A stretch of 63,838 bases of DNA, counting the filler, from an uncultured Methanosarcinales archaeon (lineage in GTDB: Archaea > Nanobdellota > Nanobdellia > Woesearchaeales > UBA12501), in the NCBI GenBank assembly GCA_964397315.1. It is 3 parts of 3 records of this genome, joined end to end, with 100 filler letters (N's around TTAATTAATTAA, not from the genome) between each part and the next. Parts side by side here need not be neighbours in the genome. Positions count along the whole stretch, not along the records: positions 27,302 to 58,857 come from CAYNHV010000018.1; positions 58,958 to 63,838 come from CAYNHV010000052.1; 1 more part is not named here. One strand, given 5' to 3'. Shown piece by piece: positions 51,001 to 60,000 of this stretch; within the stretch, counting starts at the first letter, position 1; each line of letters begins with the position of its first letter. A program made the position numbers.

Positions 51001-54000
51001 CTCCTTACCTGGCCCCTCTGCATACAAGGTATTTATCGCATCCTGCCCATCCACCTTTCTTACAATATCTGCTGAAGCGCTGGCCATTCTCCGGAATCCC
51101 TGCAGGATATTTTTAAAACTTCCTGACTGTTTTATTCTTATCAGAATAAAAACACATTGTTTTAAGAATAAGGTTTTCAGGAATTTCTGATAAAAATGTT
51201 CTGAAAGGTAAGTCTTGGTTTATTAATCATGGCCAGAATGGCCTTACAGCCTTTCTTAAGGCAGTTTAGAAATTGTACCCTTTTTTGTACAAGATTTTGT
51301 AACAATTTGTTGGAAAAGGGTTTTATAAGCGTACTGATCATTAGGAGACTAAAGATGATCTGAAAAAATTGTTTTTAACAAAAAATCAAATAAAACCAAA
51401 AACCAGTCCTGCAATTGTTGAATAAACTATAACCAATCCAACATATACAGCAGTCTTTTTATTGCCTAAAACTCCTCTGACTACAAGCATATTGGGCAGG
51501 CTCAGGGATGGCCCAGCCAATAAGAGTGCCAGAGCAGGCCCTTGGTGCATCCCTTTTGAGATCAAAGCCTGCAGGATGGGTATCTCTGTCAATGTTGAAA
51601 AGTACATGAATGCCCCGAATATTGATCCTATGAAATTTCCTATTAGGGTATTGCTTCCAACCAGCTGGGTGATGAGGCTTTCCGGAAGCAGGGGCATGAT
51701 GAATCCTGCAATGAAGACTCCAATAAACAATAATGGGAGTATCAGCTTTGAGAAGTTCCAGGTCTCATTCAGCCATTTATGCACGATATGATCCCTGAAT
51801 TTCCACCATACCAGGCCGACAACACTTAGAGTGAATGCTGCCATCAGGGAATATTTCAGGATACTGCTGATCTGCAGCCCATTGACAACAAGCACCCCAA
51901 TCATGAGCCCGAAAAAGGCTATCATGACCTTGTTAGACAGCCTTGATTCTTCAGTCTCCTGAATCATCAGTTTCTCTTTCTCCACTTTCTCCCTGAAAAT
52001 TGCGTGCATTGTGAGACCCACCAATATGGAAAGCAAAACTGCTGAAGTGACTCTTGCCAGCCCTATCTTTAAACCAAGCACGCTCATAGTCAGGAATATG
52101 GCAGCAATGTTGATTGCAGGGCCTGAGAACAGGAATGTTATTGCAGGGCCCAATCCTGCGCCCCTTTTCCTTATGCCTGCAAACAAGGGGAGGATAGTGC
52201 ATGAACAGACTGCCAGTATAGCCCCTGAGACTGAGGCAACGCCATAAGAGACATACTTCTTGGCTTCATGGCCAAGATACTTCATGACTTTCTCTTTTTT
52301 TACGAATACAGCAATTGCACCTGCTATAAACAAGGCAGGAATCAAACACGTCAGGACATGCTGTCTTGAGTACTCATGCAGCAGGTCAAAAGCAGAGAGT
52401 ATTGAAGTCCGGAACCATTCCGCATTAGAAGGCACAAAATACAATAATGCAAATATTATCGCTATCCCTGCCAGCATATTCCAGTCTTTTCTTTCCATAT
52501 CATATCACCATTATTCCTGTATAGTATGCTCCTGCGATTATGAAGATTCCTGCGACAATCTTTCTCATCCATAATTCAGATGTCTGGACCTTGTTCATGA
52601 CTCTGCCTAGTCTTGAAACGCCTTTTACTAATATAATCGAGAAGATTATGACCGGAAGCCCTGTCGCAAGAGCAAACACCGAAGGGATGACCAGTCCGTC
52701 TCCGGCTTTTAAGGCAATCGGGATGAGCATCCCGAAGAACAGCACTGCGCTGAATGGGCAGAACGCCAGCGCAAAGATAACTCCCAACAGAAAGCTTCCT
52801 AAAAATCCCTTCTCTGCAAGCCTCTGCTTCAGCCTGTTCATCTTACCGCTTGACCTGAGAAAGCTGAACTTAAAAATGTCAAGCATGACAACACCAATGA
52901 CCAGCAGCAAAGGCCCAAGGATCTTCTCGCCATAATTCTGAAGGAATAATGCTATTGCCTGAGTATTGACCCCCACCCAGACTATCATGGATGCCAAAAG
53001 AACATAAGTGAACATCCTCCCCAATGTATAAAGGAGCCCCACCAGCAAGGTGTGCCTGCTGTTGTCAATCTTTTTGCTCGCATAAGCTATGGCAGTGATG
53101 TTTGTTGCTAATGGGCACGGGCTTATTGCTGTCATCAGCCCTATAAAGAATGCAGCAAGTATTCCTATCTCGCTTGTCCCCATCGCCTCCATGAATGCCA
53201 TCAATCCCATTTTTAATTGCCTGCAAGTTTCTGTTCAATGACCCCTTTAAGGTAGTTCATGAAATCCTGCTTGTTCCTTAACTTATACCATACTTGGATA
53301 TTTTGCTCCGGAGTAAAATCACCTCCCCTGTATGTTCCAAGCCATAGCGATGATCCTGTTGCCCCATATTTCATGACCAGATCCCTGTTTTCTGGAAGTT
53401 CGCCATTGATGTGATCAAAGACAATCTTGCCTGATTTTAATTCATCTGCAAAGTAGGTCTTTACTGTCTCTTCAGCATAATCACCCATGGTTACACATGA
53501 ATAACATTGATTATTTCCATGAAAATGATAAATCTCAAGCTTGTCTATATTAATCTCCATCTCATTAAGATAAGCAGACTGCTGCATTTGATTGGCTGCG
53601 CTGTTCCCTGTCGGGATGTTGTCTGGATTGCTGCTGCATCCCGCCAGCATAAGCATGGCAATCACTGAAATCACTAAAAGAACATGCCTGTTGTCCATCT
53701 TATTTCCCTCCACTCTGTTTTAAGCCAGCTATTTTCTGATCTAATTCACCGATAGAAGGCAGTTTTTTAGTAAAGACTACCTTATCATCTATGAGAACTG
53801 CCGGCAGGTCACTCTTATCGATTTTTATCTTCGACTCTTGAAGAAATCTGCTATAATCGATTGACCTCAAGTCAAACATATCTTTATCAAAAGATTCTTC
53901 AAGCTTCTTCACCAGACTTATCACTTTCTTTGTGAGCCCGCTCAGCTTTCTGCCTGTAGTGACAGGCTCATAGATGAACCACAACTTTATCTTTACCATC

Positions 54001-57000: not shown

Positions 57001-60000
57001 ATTCTCGCCGCTATTGATATCGATAACTTTTGATTCATCAATATAAGCGTGATTATATGGCTTAATCCCTGTTAATCTTGCATTGATATCCTGCATTTGT
57101 ATGGGGCTTTTTACAACTGCTGTTACTTTTATCTCCTCATAAGACCCATAAGTCTTTTTGTCTGTCTCAAAGCTTAATATGTTGACATCAGGAATATTCT
57201 GTTGTTGCATGCACCCTGCAAGTATAAATGAAATAAATACAAAAACCAGCATTTGCATAATTTTTATCTTATTTTTTATTATCACGTCCATCCCCCATCT
57301 GATATAAAACTGCTTGCCCTATACGAGCTTCTTACCAAAGGCCCTGCAATAACCTTATTTATCCCTGTCTGTCTTGCATTCTCCTCTATGTTCCTGAACT
57401 CTTCAGGAGTGTAATATTTTTTCACTTTAAAATGTTTCCTGCCCGGCTGAAGATACTGGCCGATTGTTATGATATCACAGCCAGAGTCCTTCAAATCCTT
57501 GATTGTCTGCATGATCTGCTCTTCACTCTCTCCAAAACCCAGCATGAATCCTGATTTTGTTTTTATTCCGGGGTTGAATTCCTTTGCCTTTTTCAGCAGC
57601 TGCAGGGAGCAGTCATAACTGCCATCCGGCCTTAGTGTATGGAATAAGCCTTTTACAACCTCTATATTGTGGTTCAATACATCCGGCCTGGAATCAATTA
57701 TCTTTTTTAGCGCTTCCCAATTGCCTTTCAAGTCAGATATCAAGAGCTCCACCCTGCAGTTTGGACTGGTCTTTCTGATCTCATCAACTGTCTTTACAAA
57801 TTGTTCAGCGCCGCCATCTTCTAGATCATCTCTTGTGACGCATGTTATGACAGCATAACTCAGACCAAGTTTTTTAACTGTTTCTGCTATCCTTTTTGGT
57901 TCATTATCATCAACTTCTTTAGGCGCTCCTTTGTTTATGCTGCAATAAAGGCAGTTCCTTGTGCAGGTATCCCCCAGAATCATGAATGTTGCTGTGCCTT
58001 TGGAAAAGCATTCATACCTGTTGGGGCAGTTTGCTTCCACGCATACAGTAACAAGATTATTATCATCAATCAGGTTTTTTGTTTTCAGGTATTCTTTCTT
58101 ATCATAAGGTTCTGTTTCAATCCAGGAGGGGATGTCTTTTATCATGAAAATACCTTATTTGTTTCTATCAGGTCAACAAAGCCCCCATAGTCAACTAGTT
58201 TCACTTTTGCATTATTTTTTATACCCCTTAGCTCCAGATCCTCTTTTAAAGCAAGAATCTCGGCATTTTTTTCCTTAATCTCTTCAATAGCTTTTGATGT
58301 TTTATTGTTCAGTATAAGAACCCCGTCTTGTATAAAGAGCACTTTATCATCTTGCTTGATATATTTCATTACATTTGTGTTTTTGTTTGATAATGATTCT
58401 TTTATTATGAACAGCACCATTTAATTCACCTCAAAAATTGATTATTGTCTCAGCCTCATCGATAAAGCCGCGCAACTCTTTGTTTGTTATATGGTCTGCT
58501 TTAATGCAGTCAGATTCTGCGAGATTTCGCTCTGTCATTGACTCTTCACTGGCAAATATCTTCAGCCCGAACTCTTCAGCATTGCTGAATCCTTCTGTCA
58601 AACTAGTCATTTCAGCAATTTCTGGTTTCTGGTTTTTTATAAGGCAAAACACACCATCATTTGCAAAGACCAGCTTTGTCTCTAAGTCCATGCCTGCAAA
58701 TGCTATGCCTGCTCTCAATGCTTCTGCTGCAAACACGCTTCCAAAAGGCGCGTTATTGACGATTAGCAATACTTTATTCATTTTTTCACCTCATAAGCTT
58801 ACGAACTTGTCGCAATCCTTTATCATATCTGCAAGCCCTGGAAGGCCTTCAAGCTCTNNNNNNNNNNNNNNNNNNNNNNNNNNNNNNNNNNNNNNNNNNN
58901 NTTAATTAATTAANNNNNNNNNNNNNNNNNNNNNNNNNNNNNNNNNNNNNNNNNNNNCCTTCAACAGCTTGAGCGCACCAACTCCACAGAGCGCTTTAAG
59001 CATATTACTGGGCGGGATTATTGGAATCAGGAGAAGGAAGTGGTGCGATTTAAGAAGCAGTAAGCCTGCTGGGTGGTTGTGCAGAAAGGGTGGGAAGTAC
59101 CAGGACTTACAAACTTAAATATGATCCCGCCAGGTTAGCGGGAAGAACCGGGAATAATAATAAGCAAAAAACAACTCTAAGTGCGGAAACTGCTGTTAAA
59201 GTCCAATAAATTTATATACCAGAGTACGCATACCACATAATGAGGTGGTTAGATGAGAAAACGCATGCTGTTTCTGGGAGCTGTAATCATCCTGCTGATT
59301 GCTGCAAGCGGGTGCCAAAGCAGGCTCGCTGCTGAGGAGCTGTCAGAGCCCGCCTCCGAGAACAGCAGCATGGCTGAAAAAGAGCCGGATGACGGCTCTT
59401 GCAACTGCACTGATGATTATGAGCCTGTCTGCGCCAACAACCAGCTGTACCAGAACGCCTGCACTGCAGAATGCCTAGGCATAAAGGATTACAAGAAAGG
59501 GGAATGCCATGACCCAACAGGAAAACAGATGTTCCCCTGCGCCCCCACAAGCGGAGGGCTCAGCGCCCAGCAGAATCCTGTGTGCGCAAAGGTGCATGAT
59601 CTTGAGAATGATGAGTATTACTGGAAGACATTCATCAACTCCCAGACAGCCTGCAGGGCAGCAAGGCCAAACGATGTTGACATTGAAGGTTTCACAAGAG
59701 GAGAGTGCGGGATTTGAGTTTATATAAGGCATACACCAGTAGTATATTATTGTTACTGTTTAGTGGTTAAAAAACGAAACATTTATATATTAGTAATACT
59801 TCTGCGTTTGTATGACAAAAAGAAAGGCTCTCATTATAGGAAGGCACGGAAAAGCCCCTCAGAAGCCTGAGGGAGGCAGTTATGATGTTCTTACTGAAAG
59901 CTCCTTTGATGAGCTTTATTTAAAAGGCCTGAAACTCGGAGAATATGTTCTTGGCCATGGCTATACTCCAGAGAGATCTTTTCTTGTGCATACCCCAAAA

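Follow-up and report, generated by a model that had tools for sequence, protein, structure and literature searches.

What purpose does a lipoylation gene set serve in a genome whose assembly holds no protein to lipoylate? The question is raised by an array of genes in the window, the 63,838-nt stretch of DNA analysed here, which joins three contigs of an uncultured DPANN archaeon (G000; 1.47 Mb, 61 contigs, 93% complete) with N runs at 27202-27301 and 58858-58957. The array sits on the contig at 27302-58857 (G000:C18:1-31556).

A lipoylation gene array cut by a contig end

Between 58857 and 51386, 15 complete ORFs and one cut ORF, all on the minus strand, follow each other with gaps of 1-39 nt or overlaps of 4-19 nt, in the order DsrE fragment, DsrF, DsrH, LipA, lipoprotein x146, LplA, LplB, lipoprotein x205 and a cassette of ArsR/ArsE/ArsF/ArsG/ArsP type (Table 1). 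This tight array bears out the preliminary description, in which lipoylation genes shared an operon with DsrE/DsrH carriers and the operon ran off the contig 66 nt into the next gene. That cut ORF (58791-58856) proved to be the C-terminus of DsrE, matching residues 94-112 of the DsrE protein in G102, the closest relative; DsrE of relatives matches PF02635 with an E value of 4e-23. The end of the DsrH gene and the start of lipA share 4 nt, and 39 nt separate x205 from the ArsR gene.

Table 1. Genes of the minus-strand array, listed from the contig end.
Feature	Position	Strand	Evidence
DsrE/TusD-like gene, C-terminal 21 codons + TGA, cut by contig end	58791..58857	-	translation; 84% identity over 19 aa
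DsrF/TusC-like sulfur-relay subunit, 116 aa	58431..58781	-	PF02635 62.1 bits; 92% identity to G102
DsrH/TusB-like subunit, 92 aa, no Cys	58142..58420	-	PF04077 69.4 bits; TIGR03011 72.8 bits (cut-off 49.2)
Lipoyl synthase LipA	57282..58145	-	TIGR00510 349.7 bits (cut-off 310.25); NF004019 394.9 bits
Lipoprotein x146, lipobox LAGC	56854..57291	-	position same in 8 loci; 87% identity in G102
Lipoate/octanoate-protein ligase catalytic subunit, LplA-type	56097..56852	-	PF21948 187.7 bits
LplB, bipartite ligase small subunit	55828..56115	-	NF053749 72.7 bits (cut-off 65); PF10437 25.1 bits
Lipoprotein x205, predicted type-2 periplasmic-binding-protein fold, invariant Cys	55214..55831	-	alignment, model, Foldseek
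ArsR/SmtB regulator, opens downstream cassette	54920..55174	-	NF033788 85.5 bits (cut-off 55)
2x[4Fe-4S] ferredoxin	54576..54917	-	Fer4 families
Small cupin	54221..54562	-	PF07883 27.9 bits
MTH895/ArsE-family thioredoxin-like (Trx_3) protein, CPKC	54001..54231	-	TIGR00412 107.3 bits (cut-off 62); PF13192
99-aa protein	53700..53999	-	one relative, in L003; absent in G102
Exported ArsF-family protein, lipobox, CYSC	53213..53713	-	NF040494 109 bits (cut-off 60)
DsbD_2/ArsG-family membrane protein	52500..53210	-	NF040495 294 bits (cut-off 200); PF13386 77.3 bits
ArsP_1-type permease	51386..52498	-	PF03773 280.5 bits; 92% identity in G102

At the level of protein families, sequence comparison predicts that LplA and LplB are a bipartite ligase, that LipA is a canonical lipoyl synthase and that DsrE (cut), DsrF and DsrH are a TusBCD/DsrEFH-type trio. 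LipA carries the CX4CX5C, CX3CX2C and RSSY motifs of this enzyme. The DsrF/TusC-like protein scores 67.2 bits with TIGR03010, under the cut-off of 94, and the LplA-type subunit scores 218 bits with NF053750 and 182.6 bits with TIGR00545, each under its own cut-off. The latter protein had been called LipM-like, a label that we replace: the protein is a catalytic subunit of the LplA type whose LplB partner is encoded separately, and no HMM evidence for LipM was found. Lipoprotein x146 and the 99-aa protein have no match in Pfam or NCBIfam. In x205, C39 is invariant in the alignment, and the model (pLDDT 88) resembles LysR effector domains and phosphate-binding proteins (Foldseek E ~3e-9).

A GcvH-like acceptor and its membrane partner in relatives

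As reported before, no lipoyl domain is found in the assembly: the best E values of the GCV_H and Biotin_lipoyl profiles are 0.16 and 0.14, none over cut-off, and 10 of 14 and 14 of 14 control genomes, respectively, pass. Searches of the assembly for E2, GCV_T (T-protein) and Lpd also returned none. The further claim that the genome lacks any lipoate-dependent protein is not supported. The contig G102:C12 is collinear with the window over 14 of 15 genes (73-93% amino acid identity) and extends upstream through DsrE, TsuA/YeeE and TusA to an exported thioredoxin, a GcvH-like protein and a membrane thioredoxin fusion, an order shared by loci L003 and L051. Because the collinear relative has a GcvH-like gene ~1.7 kb upstream of DsrE, and because few LplA-positive genomes lack an acceptor (5 of 85, three of these five being only 59-81% complete), the absence is most simply read as an assembly gap. 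By comparison with these relatives, the unassembled upstream DNA would encode DsrE, a TsuA/YeeE-type thiosulfate transporter, TusA, an exported thioredoxin with CPHC, the membrane protein and the GcvH-like acceptor. On this view a conserved DPANN operon both makes a free-standing lipoylated GcvH-like protein and puts it to use, and its downstream two thirds lie in the window.

We surveyed a sample of 201 genomes of the order and a set of 66 LplA loci, 17 of which show the cluster. LplA-B_cat is present in 85 of the 201, in line with the earlier count of at least 271 of 822. The core pair is a membrane-fusion gene followed immediately, on the same strand and within ~250 nt, by a GcvH-like gene; it occurs in 28 of the 201 genomes, 26 of them with LplA and 20 with LipA. 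The GcvH-like proteins form a clade apart from the canonical GcvH of the same order (support 100/100) and conserve the lipoyl Lys within a signature, LEAVKWSGH, distinct from the canonical ESVKSVSD. Since none of the 28 core-pair genomes has E2 or GCV_T, the survey supports an operon with no link to glycine cleavage or to 2-oxoacid dehydrogenases, in which the stand-alone GcvH-like protein is the only lipoyl acceptor.

The constant partner of this acceptor is not the sulfur carriers, a minority variant found in 2 of 28 core-pair genomes, but an exported thioredoxin and a membrane protein whose CxxC thioredoxin domains are extracytoplasmic. The latter had been described as a thioredoxin-glutaredoxin fusion of 540-610 aa; the thioredoxin/glutaredoxin domains stand, one or two of them and extracytoplasmic, but the protein is not soluble, having a C-terminal polytopic domain of seven helices with two invariant intramembrane Cys at helix breaks (FNPC, LPCT). 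In design this domain is like CcdA/DsbD, and relatives of the fusion carry the database label 'CcdA/glutaredoxin'. The structure that it matches best over the full length is that of CcdA (5vkv; rank 2 of 48,161 chains, 195 residues aligned); the Z of 8.4 is a value that helical bundles can also attain by chance. Membership in the CcdA/DsbD family failed every sequence test: no Pfam or NCBIfam match appeared at E<=1, the hhalign comparison with DsbD_2 gave E 0.21, no internal repeat was detected, and Foldseek gave E 1.4. The fusion family occurs in 137 of the 201 genomes, mostly as paralogs, and is widespread in bacteria with no GcvH beside it, as in 74 of the best 80 loci; a lipoyl partner is therefore not needed in general.

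Variable genes in the slot before LipA

The slot before LipA holds a CoADR-type flavoprotein in 22 of the 28 core-pair genomes. What had been called a dihydrolipoyl dehydrogenase in relatives is usually this protein, of the CoADR/NADH-oxidase type with a single Cys, and a true Lpd is found in G028 and G156, adjoining LipA in the latter. The other genomes without the flavoprotein are G102 and G138, with DsrE+DsrF, G094, with DUF169, and G147, where no replacement was found. AhpD-like proteins with an HCxWC motif occupy the slot in four loci; AhpD itself is known to be a reductase that depends on lipoyl groups. The flavoprotein is distributed like a stand-in for Lpd: among 16 canonical GcvH+GcvT genomes, 11 have only the flavoprotein, three only Lpd and none both. 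It is also retained, adjacent to the cluster, in G038, G098 and G142, which have no LipA, and is therefore more than a LipA helper.

The DsrE+DsrF pair was found in 3 of the 201 genomes, each with the lipoyl cluster: in G000 and G102 it is part of the operon, and in G138 it is next to lipA, with the GcvH pair on a different short contig. Operon-borne DsrE/F/H genes recur at L003, L004, L010 and L051. Sulfur module and flavoprotein exclude each other at genome level; four of five genomes with the DsrEFH variant (variant A) lack both flavoprotein and Lpd, and DsrE and Sulf_transp are absent from five variant-B genomes. Because the slot contents (flavoprotein, sulfur carriers, DUF169) are chemically unlike, the same slot need not mean the same role.

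A candidate thiol relay and its alternatives

The cluster, whose cofactor-making half lies in the window, appears to use lipoic acid on a small free-standing carrier protein and not in central metabolism, this carrier being linked to thiol proteins of the membrane and surface and, in this lineage, to sulfur carriers as well. Given that the GcvH-like protein is the sole acceptor, that GCV_T and E2 are missing and that DsrE/F/H are confined to the operon in this order, a role in thiol redox or sulfane-sulfur handling is reasonable. The lipoyl-protein relay proposed in the preliminary description thus survives in its acceptor and general role, not in the sulfur carriers as constant partner. More specifically, lipoyl-GcvH may be a free-standing dithiol carrier for a membrane or surface thiol relay, here coupled to sulfane sulfur and not to NAD(P)H, a reading that we infer and regard as evenly balanced between right and wrong. 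Octanoate or lipoate would be scavenged and joined by the ligase to the Lys in LEAVKWSGH, and LipA would then put sulfurs into the attached group; the resulting arm could act as a cytoplasmic dithiol/disulfide carrier, passing reducing equivalents to and from the Cys pair in the membrane and, through it, the surface thioredoxins. In most relatives the arm would be cycled by the CoADR-type NAD(P)H flavoprotein or a true Lpd, and it might feed an AhpD-like protein. In this lineage TsuA-TusA-DsrEFH, in place of the flavoprotein, might couple the lipoyl dithiol to thiosulfate-derived persulfide sulfur, with persulfide going to sulfide as the lipoyl group is oxidized, or the reverse. Such persulfide can oxidize but not reduce the arm, so variant A would need another reductant, candidates being a thioredoxin system (TrxR-like genes lie on contigs C20 and C22) or external thiols. 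Our literature search found no paper on a stand-alone lipoyl-GcvH thiol/sulfur system.

The carriers might instead serve lipoate synthesis only, and not the finished arm, if TsuA-TusA-DsrEFH take up thiosulfate and pass persulfide sulfur on to LipA, an enzyme that uses up its auxiliary Fe-S cluster in every turnover. The DsrH-lipA overlap fits this account, as do the position of LipA directly after DsrH in 7 of 7 variant-A loci and the grouping of TusA-YeeE-DsrEFH with LipA-LplAB at L010, where the membrane fusion and GcvH lie ~3.5 kb further. However, LipA occurs without the DsrE+DsrF pair in 32 of 39 E2-type genomes of the order and in 14 of 16 canonical glycine-cleavage genomes, the same-slot flavoprotein stays where LipA is missing, and we know of no other case in which TusA/DsrE would feed LipA; we consider this supply route unlikely. 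Far less credible is a reduced sulfur oxidation system of the sHdr/LbpA type, with the lipoyl protein carrying sulfane sulfur for oxidation. Like the sHdr clusters described in two papers (PMC6067878, PMC10332631), this one does bring TusA, DsrE-type carriers and a GcvH-like lipoyl protein together with dedicated lipoylation genes. This reading is contradicted by the lack of Hdr-like genes, G000, G102, G138 and G004 having no CCG/HdrB domain, in agreement with the earlier remark that no sHdr genes were seen. Moreover, the synthase is canonical LipA and not LipS1/S2 (the LipS2 model gives 32 bits against a cut-off of 270), and the cysteines given as typical of LbpA in a 2026 bioRxiv preprint are missing, 19 of 21 GcvH-like proteins having no Cys at all.

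Two further explanations turn on the cassette, in which the stretch from ArsR to ArsP scores above the curated cut-offs of the ArsE/ArsF/ArsG families. It lies downstream of the cluster in the window and at L004, L005, L008 and L012, and upstream at L003, L007, L010 and L058; it lies next to the lipoyl cluster in G102 and in 10 of 23 cluster loci, the flanks of the other 13 showing no cassette. ArsR-ArsE-ArsF-ArsG-ArsP forms a separable thiol-dependent unit, often found with the cluster but at changing positions around it. Arsenicals classically target the vicinal dithiols of lipoate, and in an ArsR-controlled thiol island the lipoyl dithiol might reduce or sacrificially bind trivalent or organo-arsenicals ahead of ArsE/F/G and ArsP. 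Along with the adjacency, an added ArsM-like methyltransferase at L005 and weak matches of the AhpD-like proteins to arsenic-associated AhpD models would suit such a defence, which we nonetheless judge very unlikely given the cassette-free loci, ArsE/F/G names that come from family models and not from archaeal tests, and the lack of a direct link between GcvH and arsenic. It is improbable, if less so, that a compact genome merely juxtaposes three independent modules: lipoyl-GcvH maturation, a general sulfur-trafficking set for thiosulfate assimilation or the thiolation of tRNA or cofactors, and an organoarsenical/metal cassette. The cassette alone passes the ArsE/F/G cut-offs and changes side and order between loci, and DPANN genomes are densely packed, so that overlaps alone prove little. 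Against independence, the confinement of DsrE+DsrF to three genomes with this cluster makes a housekeeping role unlikely, sulfur module and flavoprotein are mutually exclusive, and at L010 the exported thioredoxin is placed between TusA and YeeE.

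The lipoylation array at the contig end

The three contigs of the window are joined by runs of N, each join (27202-27301 and 58858-58957) consisting of 44 N, TTAATTAATTAA and 44 N, and features are not readable across these joins. The array lies on contig C18 (27302-58857) of G000, the genome of the window, which comprises 1.47 Mb in 61 contigs and is rated 93% complete. Its sixteen genes follow one another on the minus strand from 58857 down to 51386, with gaps of 1-39 nt or overlaps of 4-19 nt. The preliminary description held that these lipoylation genes stand in an assembly without any lipoate-dependent enzyme, and this is borne out: no GCV_H or Biotin_lipoyl match exceeded the cut-off in the G000 assembly (best Biotin_lipoyl E 0.14), and no E2 (PF00198), GCV_T, or Lpd was found in it.

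Genes of the array in transcription order, and further loci mentioned in the text
Feature	Location	Strand	Remark
DsrE/TusD-like, last 21 codons	58791-58856	-	1st
DsrF/TusC-like		-	2nd
DsrH/TusB-like		-	3rd
LipA		-	4th; over equivalog cut-off
Lipoprotein, no known family		-	5th
LplA-type catalytic subunit		-	6th
LplB		-	7th; over equivalog cut-off
Second lipoprotein	55214-55831	-	8th
ArsR, ferredoxin, cupin		-	9th-11th, in this order
MTH895/ArsE-type thioredoxin-like protein		-	12th
Unknown 99-aa protein		-	13th
Exported ArsF-family protein		-	14th
DsbD_2/ArsG-family membrane protein		-	15th
ArsP_1 permease		-	16th
Paralog of membrane thioredoxin fusion	G000:C3:67792-69183		464 aa
Membrane thioredoxin fusion	L003:3736-5562		relative's locus
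Exported thioredoxin	L003:5961-6416		relative's locus
DUF169 protein	L010:15450-16217		after GcvH-like gene
DUF169 protein	L060:8324-9106		after GcvH-like gene
DUF169 protein	G094:C1 (L152:6927-7691)		after GcvH-like gene
Flavoprotein beside LipA	G018:C2:17156-19303		example
Flavoprotein beside LipA	G128:C5:38229-40395		example
Flavoprotein beside LipA	G158:C18:51253-53436		example
Flavoprotein beside LipA	G209:C32:38218-40406		example
E2 beside LplA and LipA	G140:C1:167739-173806		sister genus, same family

LipA reaches equivalog level (TIGR00510, 349.7 bits against a cut-off of 310.25), and its translation displays CX4CX5C, CX3CX2C, and RSSY, the Cys motifs among these defining the radical-SAM and auxiliary clusters. 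The LplA catalytic domain (PF21948, 187.7 bits) and the LplB small subunit (NF053749, 72.7 bits against 65) are predicted to form a bipartite lipoate-protein ligase, an assignment made at the family level only because the stricter LplA models stayed under their cut-offs (LplA_large, 218 against 480; TIGR00545, 182.6 against 280). The LplA-type gene had earlier been named after the octanoyltransferase LipM; no LipM model is among its 6 NCBIfam matches, and the overlap of the LplB gene with its 3' end favors a ligase.

DsrH (TIGR03011, 72.8 bits against 49.2) and DsrF/TusC (PF02635, 62.1 bits; TIGR03010, 67.2 bits, under the cut-off of 94), together with the E-F-H gene order and the "KICGVC" Cys of DsrE in relatives, the DsrE of the window itself being cut, identify a putative DsrEFH/TusBCD sulfur-relay trio. 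At the far end of the array, models in adjacent genes score over their curated cut-offs (Trx_3/ArsE TIGR00412, 107.3 against 62; ArsF NF040494, 109 against 60; ArsG NF040495, 294 against 200), as expected of an arsEFG-type cassette with ArsR and ArsP; these names come from NCBIfam models, and the function in archaea is a predicted one. Compared with such cassettes, a ferredoxin, a cupin, and an ArsP_1 permease are added here, the copy is archaeal, and it adjoins the lipoyl cluster.

For the lipoprotein encoded after LplB, the model (pLDDT 88) shows a type-2 periplasmic-binding-protein fold (Foldseek E about 3e-9); the Cys of its G-x-C-x-T motif is invariant, and it has no transporter partner. 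Its ligand could be lipoate, octanoate, or a sulfur anion.

The proposed GcvH-like carrier and its genetically linked membrane protein

A search with the LplA protein yielded 66 loci in relatives. The 150 ORFs of the nearest loci were annotated with Pfam, and HMMs made from them were used to label all ORFs of all 66 loci; the HMMs for LplB (110 hits), ArsF (32), and "sTrx" (31) drifted and served for best-hit labeling only. Seventeen loci share one common cluster, in the order (wHTH regulator), large "Trx/Grx" protein, GcvH-like protein, small thioredoxin, a variable slot, LipA, (lipoprotein), LplA, LplB, (lipoprotein). In the closest relative of the genome collection, G102, 14 of 15 genes on contig C12 are collinear with the window at 73-93% amino acid identity, and the operon continues upstream with DsrE, a TsuA/YeeE-type transporter, TusA, a small thioredoxin, a GcvH-like gene, and the large membrane protein, the last truncated by the end of that contig. 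Cluster HMMs found no GcvH, TusA, YeeE, DsrE, or CMD on the 61 contigs of G000. Because G102 carries the upstream genes and the G000 contigs have none, the acceptor gene of G000 most likely lies in unassembled DNA. Within a fixed set of 201 genomes sampled from the order, one of them G000, 5 of the 85 LplA-positive genomes lack an acceptor, and 3 of those 5 are 59-81% complete. A wHTH regulator gene at the start of contig C30 was considered as the other side of the gap; it is 22-42% identical to the cluster regulators, and the connection is not claimed.

Searches of this sample found LplA in 85 of 201 genomes, LipA in 71, GCV_H in 50, E2 in 39, Lpd over the cut-off in 35, GCV_T in 22, the CoADR-type flavoprotein discussed below in 45, any DsrE in 19, a DsrE+DsrF pair in 3, and the membrane domain of the large protein in 137. 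When the hit lists were cross-tabulated, canonical GcvH and GcvT occurred together in 16 genomes, and a GcvH-like gene lies directly downstream of a high-scoring membrane-fusion gene in 28. None of these 28 pair genomes has E2 or GCV_T; 26 have LplA and 20 have LipA. Genomes flagged as unpublished are G141 (one of the 16 canonical genomes and of the 11 among them with flavoprotein only), G130 (one of the 5 without an acceptor), G121 (a flavoprotein hit outside both groups), and G192 (a membrane-domain hit); none is a pair genome.

The pair-type GcvH-like proteins form their own clade with 100/100 support, apart from the canonical GcvH of the same order. They retain the lipoyl Lys within the signature LEAVKWSGH (canonical, ESVKSVSD), are Cys-free in 19 of 21 cases, and are less acidic, with a median net charge of -1 versus -9. 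Only 4 longer GcvH-like proteins were found, three of them fused to a DGC domain and none to thioredoxin, flavoprotein, or DsrE. A role in glycine cleavage was rejected, GCV_T being absent from G000 and all 28 pair genomes and the clade lying apart from canonical GcvH, as was one in 2-oxoacid dehydrogenases, with PF00198 equally absent from both. Collectively, this is strong comparative evidence that the lipoylation genes of the window would serve a dedicated GcvH-like carrier belonging to neither system. G140, a 100% complete genome of a sister genus in the same family as G000, has an ordinary E2 beside LplA and LipA and no GcvH; thus, both uses of lipoate occur within one family. LipA was not found at E<=1e-30 in eight of the 28 cluster genomes (G038, G062, G064, G098, G127, G142, G147, and G191), seven of which keep LplA; these may rely on scavenging lipoate.

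The "Trx-Grx fusion" of relatives turned out to be a membrane protein with a signal or anchor helix, a domain of seven predicted helices, and one or two extracytoplasmic thioredoxin folds with CPHC and often also CPQC. Invariant D-x-F-N-P-C and E-L-x-C-T motifs occupy breaks in the first and fourth helices of the membrane domain, and a basic loop is conserved. The small thioredoxin of the cluster has a signal peptide or lipobox and likewise carries CPHC. There is strong comparative evidence that this membrane Cys-pair protein with its surface thioredoxin domains and the exported thioredoxin are the fixed genetic partners of the GcvH-like protein.

The membrane domain had no Pfam or NCBIfam match (E up to 1-10; 4+5+2 proteins), no internal repeat detectable with hhalign, and only a chance hit in a sequence profile search of solved structures; its profile aligned to the window-type DsbD_2 alignment with a nonsignificant E of 0.21 (hhalign). 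Foldseek gave a best E of 1.4 and nothing at E<=0.001. The best full-length match by VIA-align was the CcdA NMR structure 5vkv (195 residues, rank 2 of 48,161 chains), with a Z of 8.4 that falls in the range helical bundles reach by chance. Since the sequence and Foldseek tests gave nothing and this Z is in the chance range, we describe the protein as built like CcdA/DsbD with fused thioredoxin domains and do not file it in that family; database sources label its relatives "CcdA/glutaredoxin." Complex prediction of the membrane domain with the GcvH-like protein reached scores of 0.00 and 0.01, the mark being 0.32, and carries no verdict either way.

The CPHC motif of the exported domains, a point of difference from CcdA/DsbD, is typical of DsbA oxidases. 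As in CcdA/DsbD systems with surface thioredoxin lipoproteins, such as the streptococcal CcdA-Etrx/SdbB-MsrAB pathways (PMC7034828), the protein is polytopic with two intramembrane Cys and comes with CxxC thioredoxin folds on the extracytoplasmic side and a thioredoxin-like lipoprotein. Unlike in CcdA/DsbD, family membership is not demonstrable by sequence here, and the cytoplasmic protein to which it is genetically linked is a lipoyl protein instead of thioredoxin. Paralogs of the membrane fusion are present in 137 of the 201 sampled genomes, and G000 itself encodes one (95.9 bits with the membrane-domain profile). The family is widespread among bacteria as well, without GcvH next to it in 74 of the 80 best loci.

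The variable slot before LipA

The slot most often holds a flavoprotein: 13 LplA loci have it, as do 22 of the 28 pair genomes. The preliminary description read it as a dihydrolipoyl dehydrogenase, which its features contradict: a single Cys, in YSPCAL, no CxxxxC, and 92-134 bits on the Lpd model TIGR01350 (cut-off 408.8). Its best matches are CoA-disulfide reductases, NADH oxidases, and a CoA-persulfide reductase, and it scores 327 bits on the CoADR equivalog, under the cut-off of 578.8. In the 16 canonical glycine-cleavage genomes, flavoprotein only was found in 11, Lpd only in 3, and both in none; the flavoprotein adjoins LipA in several of them (table, among others). This distribution and the position next to LipA suggest that the CoADR-type flavoprotein substitutes for Lpd, and in the canonical genomes it may stand in for the L-protein by non-orthologous replacement. 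It is kept in 7 of the 8 pair genomes without LipA, in three of which (G038, G098, and G142) it lies in the cluster adjoining GcvH and LplA; thus, it is not simply a LipA helper.

Six pair genomes have no flavoprotein. Two possess a true Lpd (G028 and G156, adjoining LipA in the latter), two the DsrE+DsrF pair (G102 and G138), and one DUF169 (G094); nothing was found in its place in the fragmentary G147. AhpD-like proteins with HCxWC occupy the slot in four loci. DUF169 (COG2043) proteins follow the GcvH-like gene in L010, L060, and G094, the last a closed 0.9-Mb genome with neither flavoprotein nor DsrEFH.

The sulfur module (TusA/TsuA/DsrEFH) and the flavoprotein are mutually exclusive at the genome level. 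None of the five genomes with the module encodes the flavoprotein (G002 has weak matches only, at 26-29% identity), and four of them have no Lpd, G002 having one elsewhere; in five flavoprotein genomes checked, DsrE and Sulf_transp were both absent. The other slot proteins (Lpd, the CoADR-type enzyme, and AhpD-like proteins) are mostly known or expected to act on lipoyl dithiols, and because of this TusA/DsrEFH probably also meet the lipoyl arm, where they would exchange persulfide sulfur from imported thiosulfate. The relatives' transporter resembles TsuA of the TsuA-TsuB (YeeE-YeeD) system (NF052577, 306.8 bits, under the cut-off of 400), and their TusA-like protein, which has CPYP, and the DsrE-F-H trio with the conserved DsrE Cys resemble TusBCD/DsrEFH (TusC, 67 bits against 94); unlike in either system, the genes here form part of a lipoylation operon.

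Known systems and alternative readings

The presence of lipoate is commonly taken to indicate 2-oxoacid dehydrogenases or glycine cleavage. Stand-alone lipoyl carriers also occur in mycobacteria (the Lpd-DlaT-AhpD-AhpC relay) and Trichomonas (H- and L-proteins with OsmC), the lipoyl protein acting there as a dithiol reductant in defense. They are already known, too, from sulfur oxidation and from oxidative-stress defense in Staphylococcus aureus (GcvH-L), as described in PMC6067878 and PMC10332631 and in PMC12440151, respectively. What the defense relays would have in common with the present cluster is a lipoyl dithiol reductant recharged by an NAD(P)H flavoprotein, with an AhpD-like CxxC protein in four loci; they differ in that here the flavoprotein has a single Cys and is of the CoADR type, the cluster showed no peroxiredoxin and comprises membrane and surface thioredoxins as a further part, and sulfur carriers replace the flavoprotein in the window's lineage.

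The closest likeness on the sulfur side is sHdr-LbpA sulfur oxidation, in which, according to PMC6067878 and PMC10332631, a GcvH-like lipoyl protein outside central metabolism likewise has its own ligase, synthase, and TusA/DsrE-family carriers. An sHdr-like pathway is nevertheless contradicted by the absence of Hdr-like genes, as judged by CCG domains, from G000, G102, G138, and G004, by canonical LipA and LplA/LplB in place of sLpl(AB)/LipS1/LipS2 (LipS2 model, 32 against 270 bits), and by the Cys-free acceptor, LbpA being described as Cys-bearing. Moreover, a DsrE-F-H trio stands here for DsrE3, the constant partner is the membrane thioredoxin fusion, and the host is a fermentative-type DPANN archaeon. 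TusA/DsrEFH might instead supply sulfur to LipA, a proposal that the DsrH-lipA overlap and locus L010 fit, but the majority of the order's LipA genes function with no such module. Mere neighborhood without shared function is unlikely for DsrEFH, which accompanies the cluster in all 3 genomes of the order where it was found, and plausible for the ars-type cassette, whose side and order vary between loci. The cassette borders 10 of the 23 cluster loci as well as the G102 cluster, which would suit a metalloid-defense island, but nothing ties GcvH to arsenic directly.

As to the dedicated thiol relay that we prefer, the direction of electron flow and the external substrate are matters of speculation. 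The CcdA/DsbD precedent and the AhpD-like proteins would favor outward flow, that is, export of reducing power; the DsbA-like CPHC motif and a persulfide able only to oxidize the arm leave room for the inward direction. It is conceivable, if on balance doubtful, that quinone-less DPANN archaea use protein-bound lipoate in place of thioredoxin on the cytoplasmic side of a transmembrane Cys-pair relay setting the redox state of surface thioredoxin-fold proteins, the arm being cycled by a CoADR-derived "lipoyl-protein reductase" or, in G000, by thiosulfate-derived persulfide on TusA/DsrEFH, sulfur compounds thereby replacing NAD(P)H/NAD(P)+; inward flow, combined with DsbA-like CPHC domains on the outside, would amount to quinone-independent extracellular disulfide formation.

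In about one in seven sampled genomes of this large DPANN order (28/201), the complete lipoylation machinery appears to be retained for the sake of one small carrier protein that is firmly tied, genetically, to membrane and surface thiol proteins. Should this reading, which is one of comparative genomics throughout, be true, lipoate would have a role in organisms with minimal metabolism, a CoADR-type enzyme may take the place of Lpd, including within this order's glycine cleavage systems, and a link of the lipoyl dithiol to persulfide carriers would be suggested without an Hdr-like enzyme; one would then also have to ask how disulfides in surface proteins are controlled in quinone-less episymbionts. 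As a caution, lipA and lplA in metagenome bins are no proof of aerobic or central-carbon functions.

Searches of open-access papers and bioRxiv returned no report of the DPANN cluster or its link to the membrane thioredoxin fusion, of a CoADR-type Lpd substitute or its swap for TusA/TsuA/DsrEFH, of GcvH linked to DsbD, or of lipoate in Woesearchaeota. Among the matches listed there, none for CcdA, lipoamide, or thiol-disulfide in archaea concerned the cluster, those for DPANN with disulfide, thioredoxin, or lipoyl made no mention of DPANN, and the DPANN papers retrieved with lipoyl synthase, ligase, or glycine cleavage did not contain the lipoate terms. In its text, the lipoate-assembly survey PMC10332631 has a single mention of Nanoarchaeota and Micrarchaeota, made only to note the absence of LipS1/S2.

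The full DPANN-type cluster also occurs on contigs deposited under bacterial names (L072, PWHG01000069.1; L014/L051; L007/L018; L015/L055; and L059), labeled Falkowbacteria, Saccharibacteria, Gammaproteobacteria, Bacilli, and Mollicutes, which reflects either mislabeled bins or real presence in CPR bacteria. Finally, in locus L003 a stretch of about 90 residues is identical between the exported thioredoxin and the first thioredoxin domain of the membrane fusion encoded two genes upstream, the pair being only similar in other loci. This looks like recent gene conversion, and a repeat of this type could break short-read assemblies near the operon.
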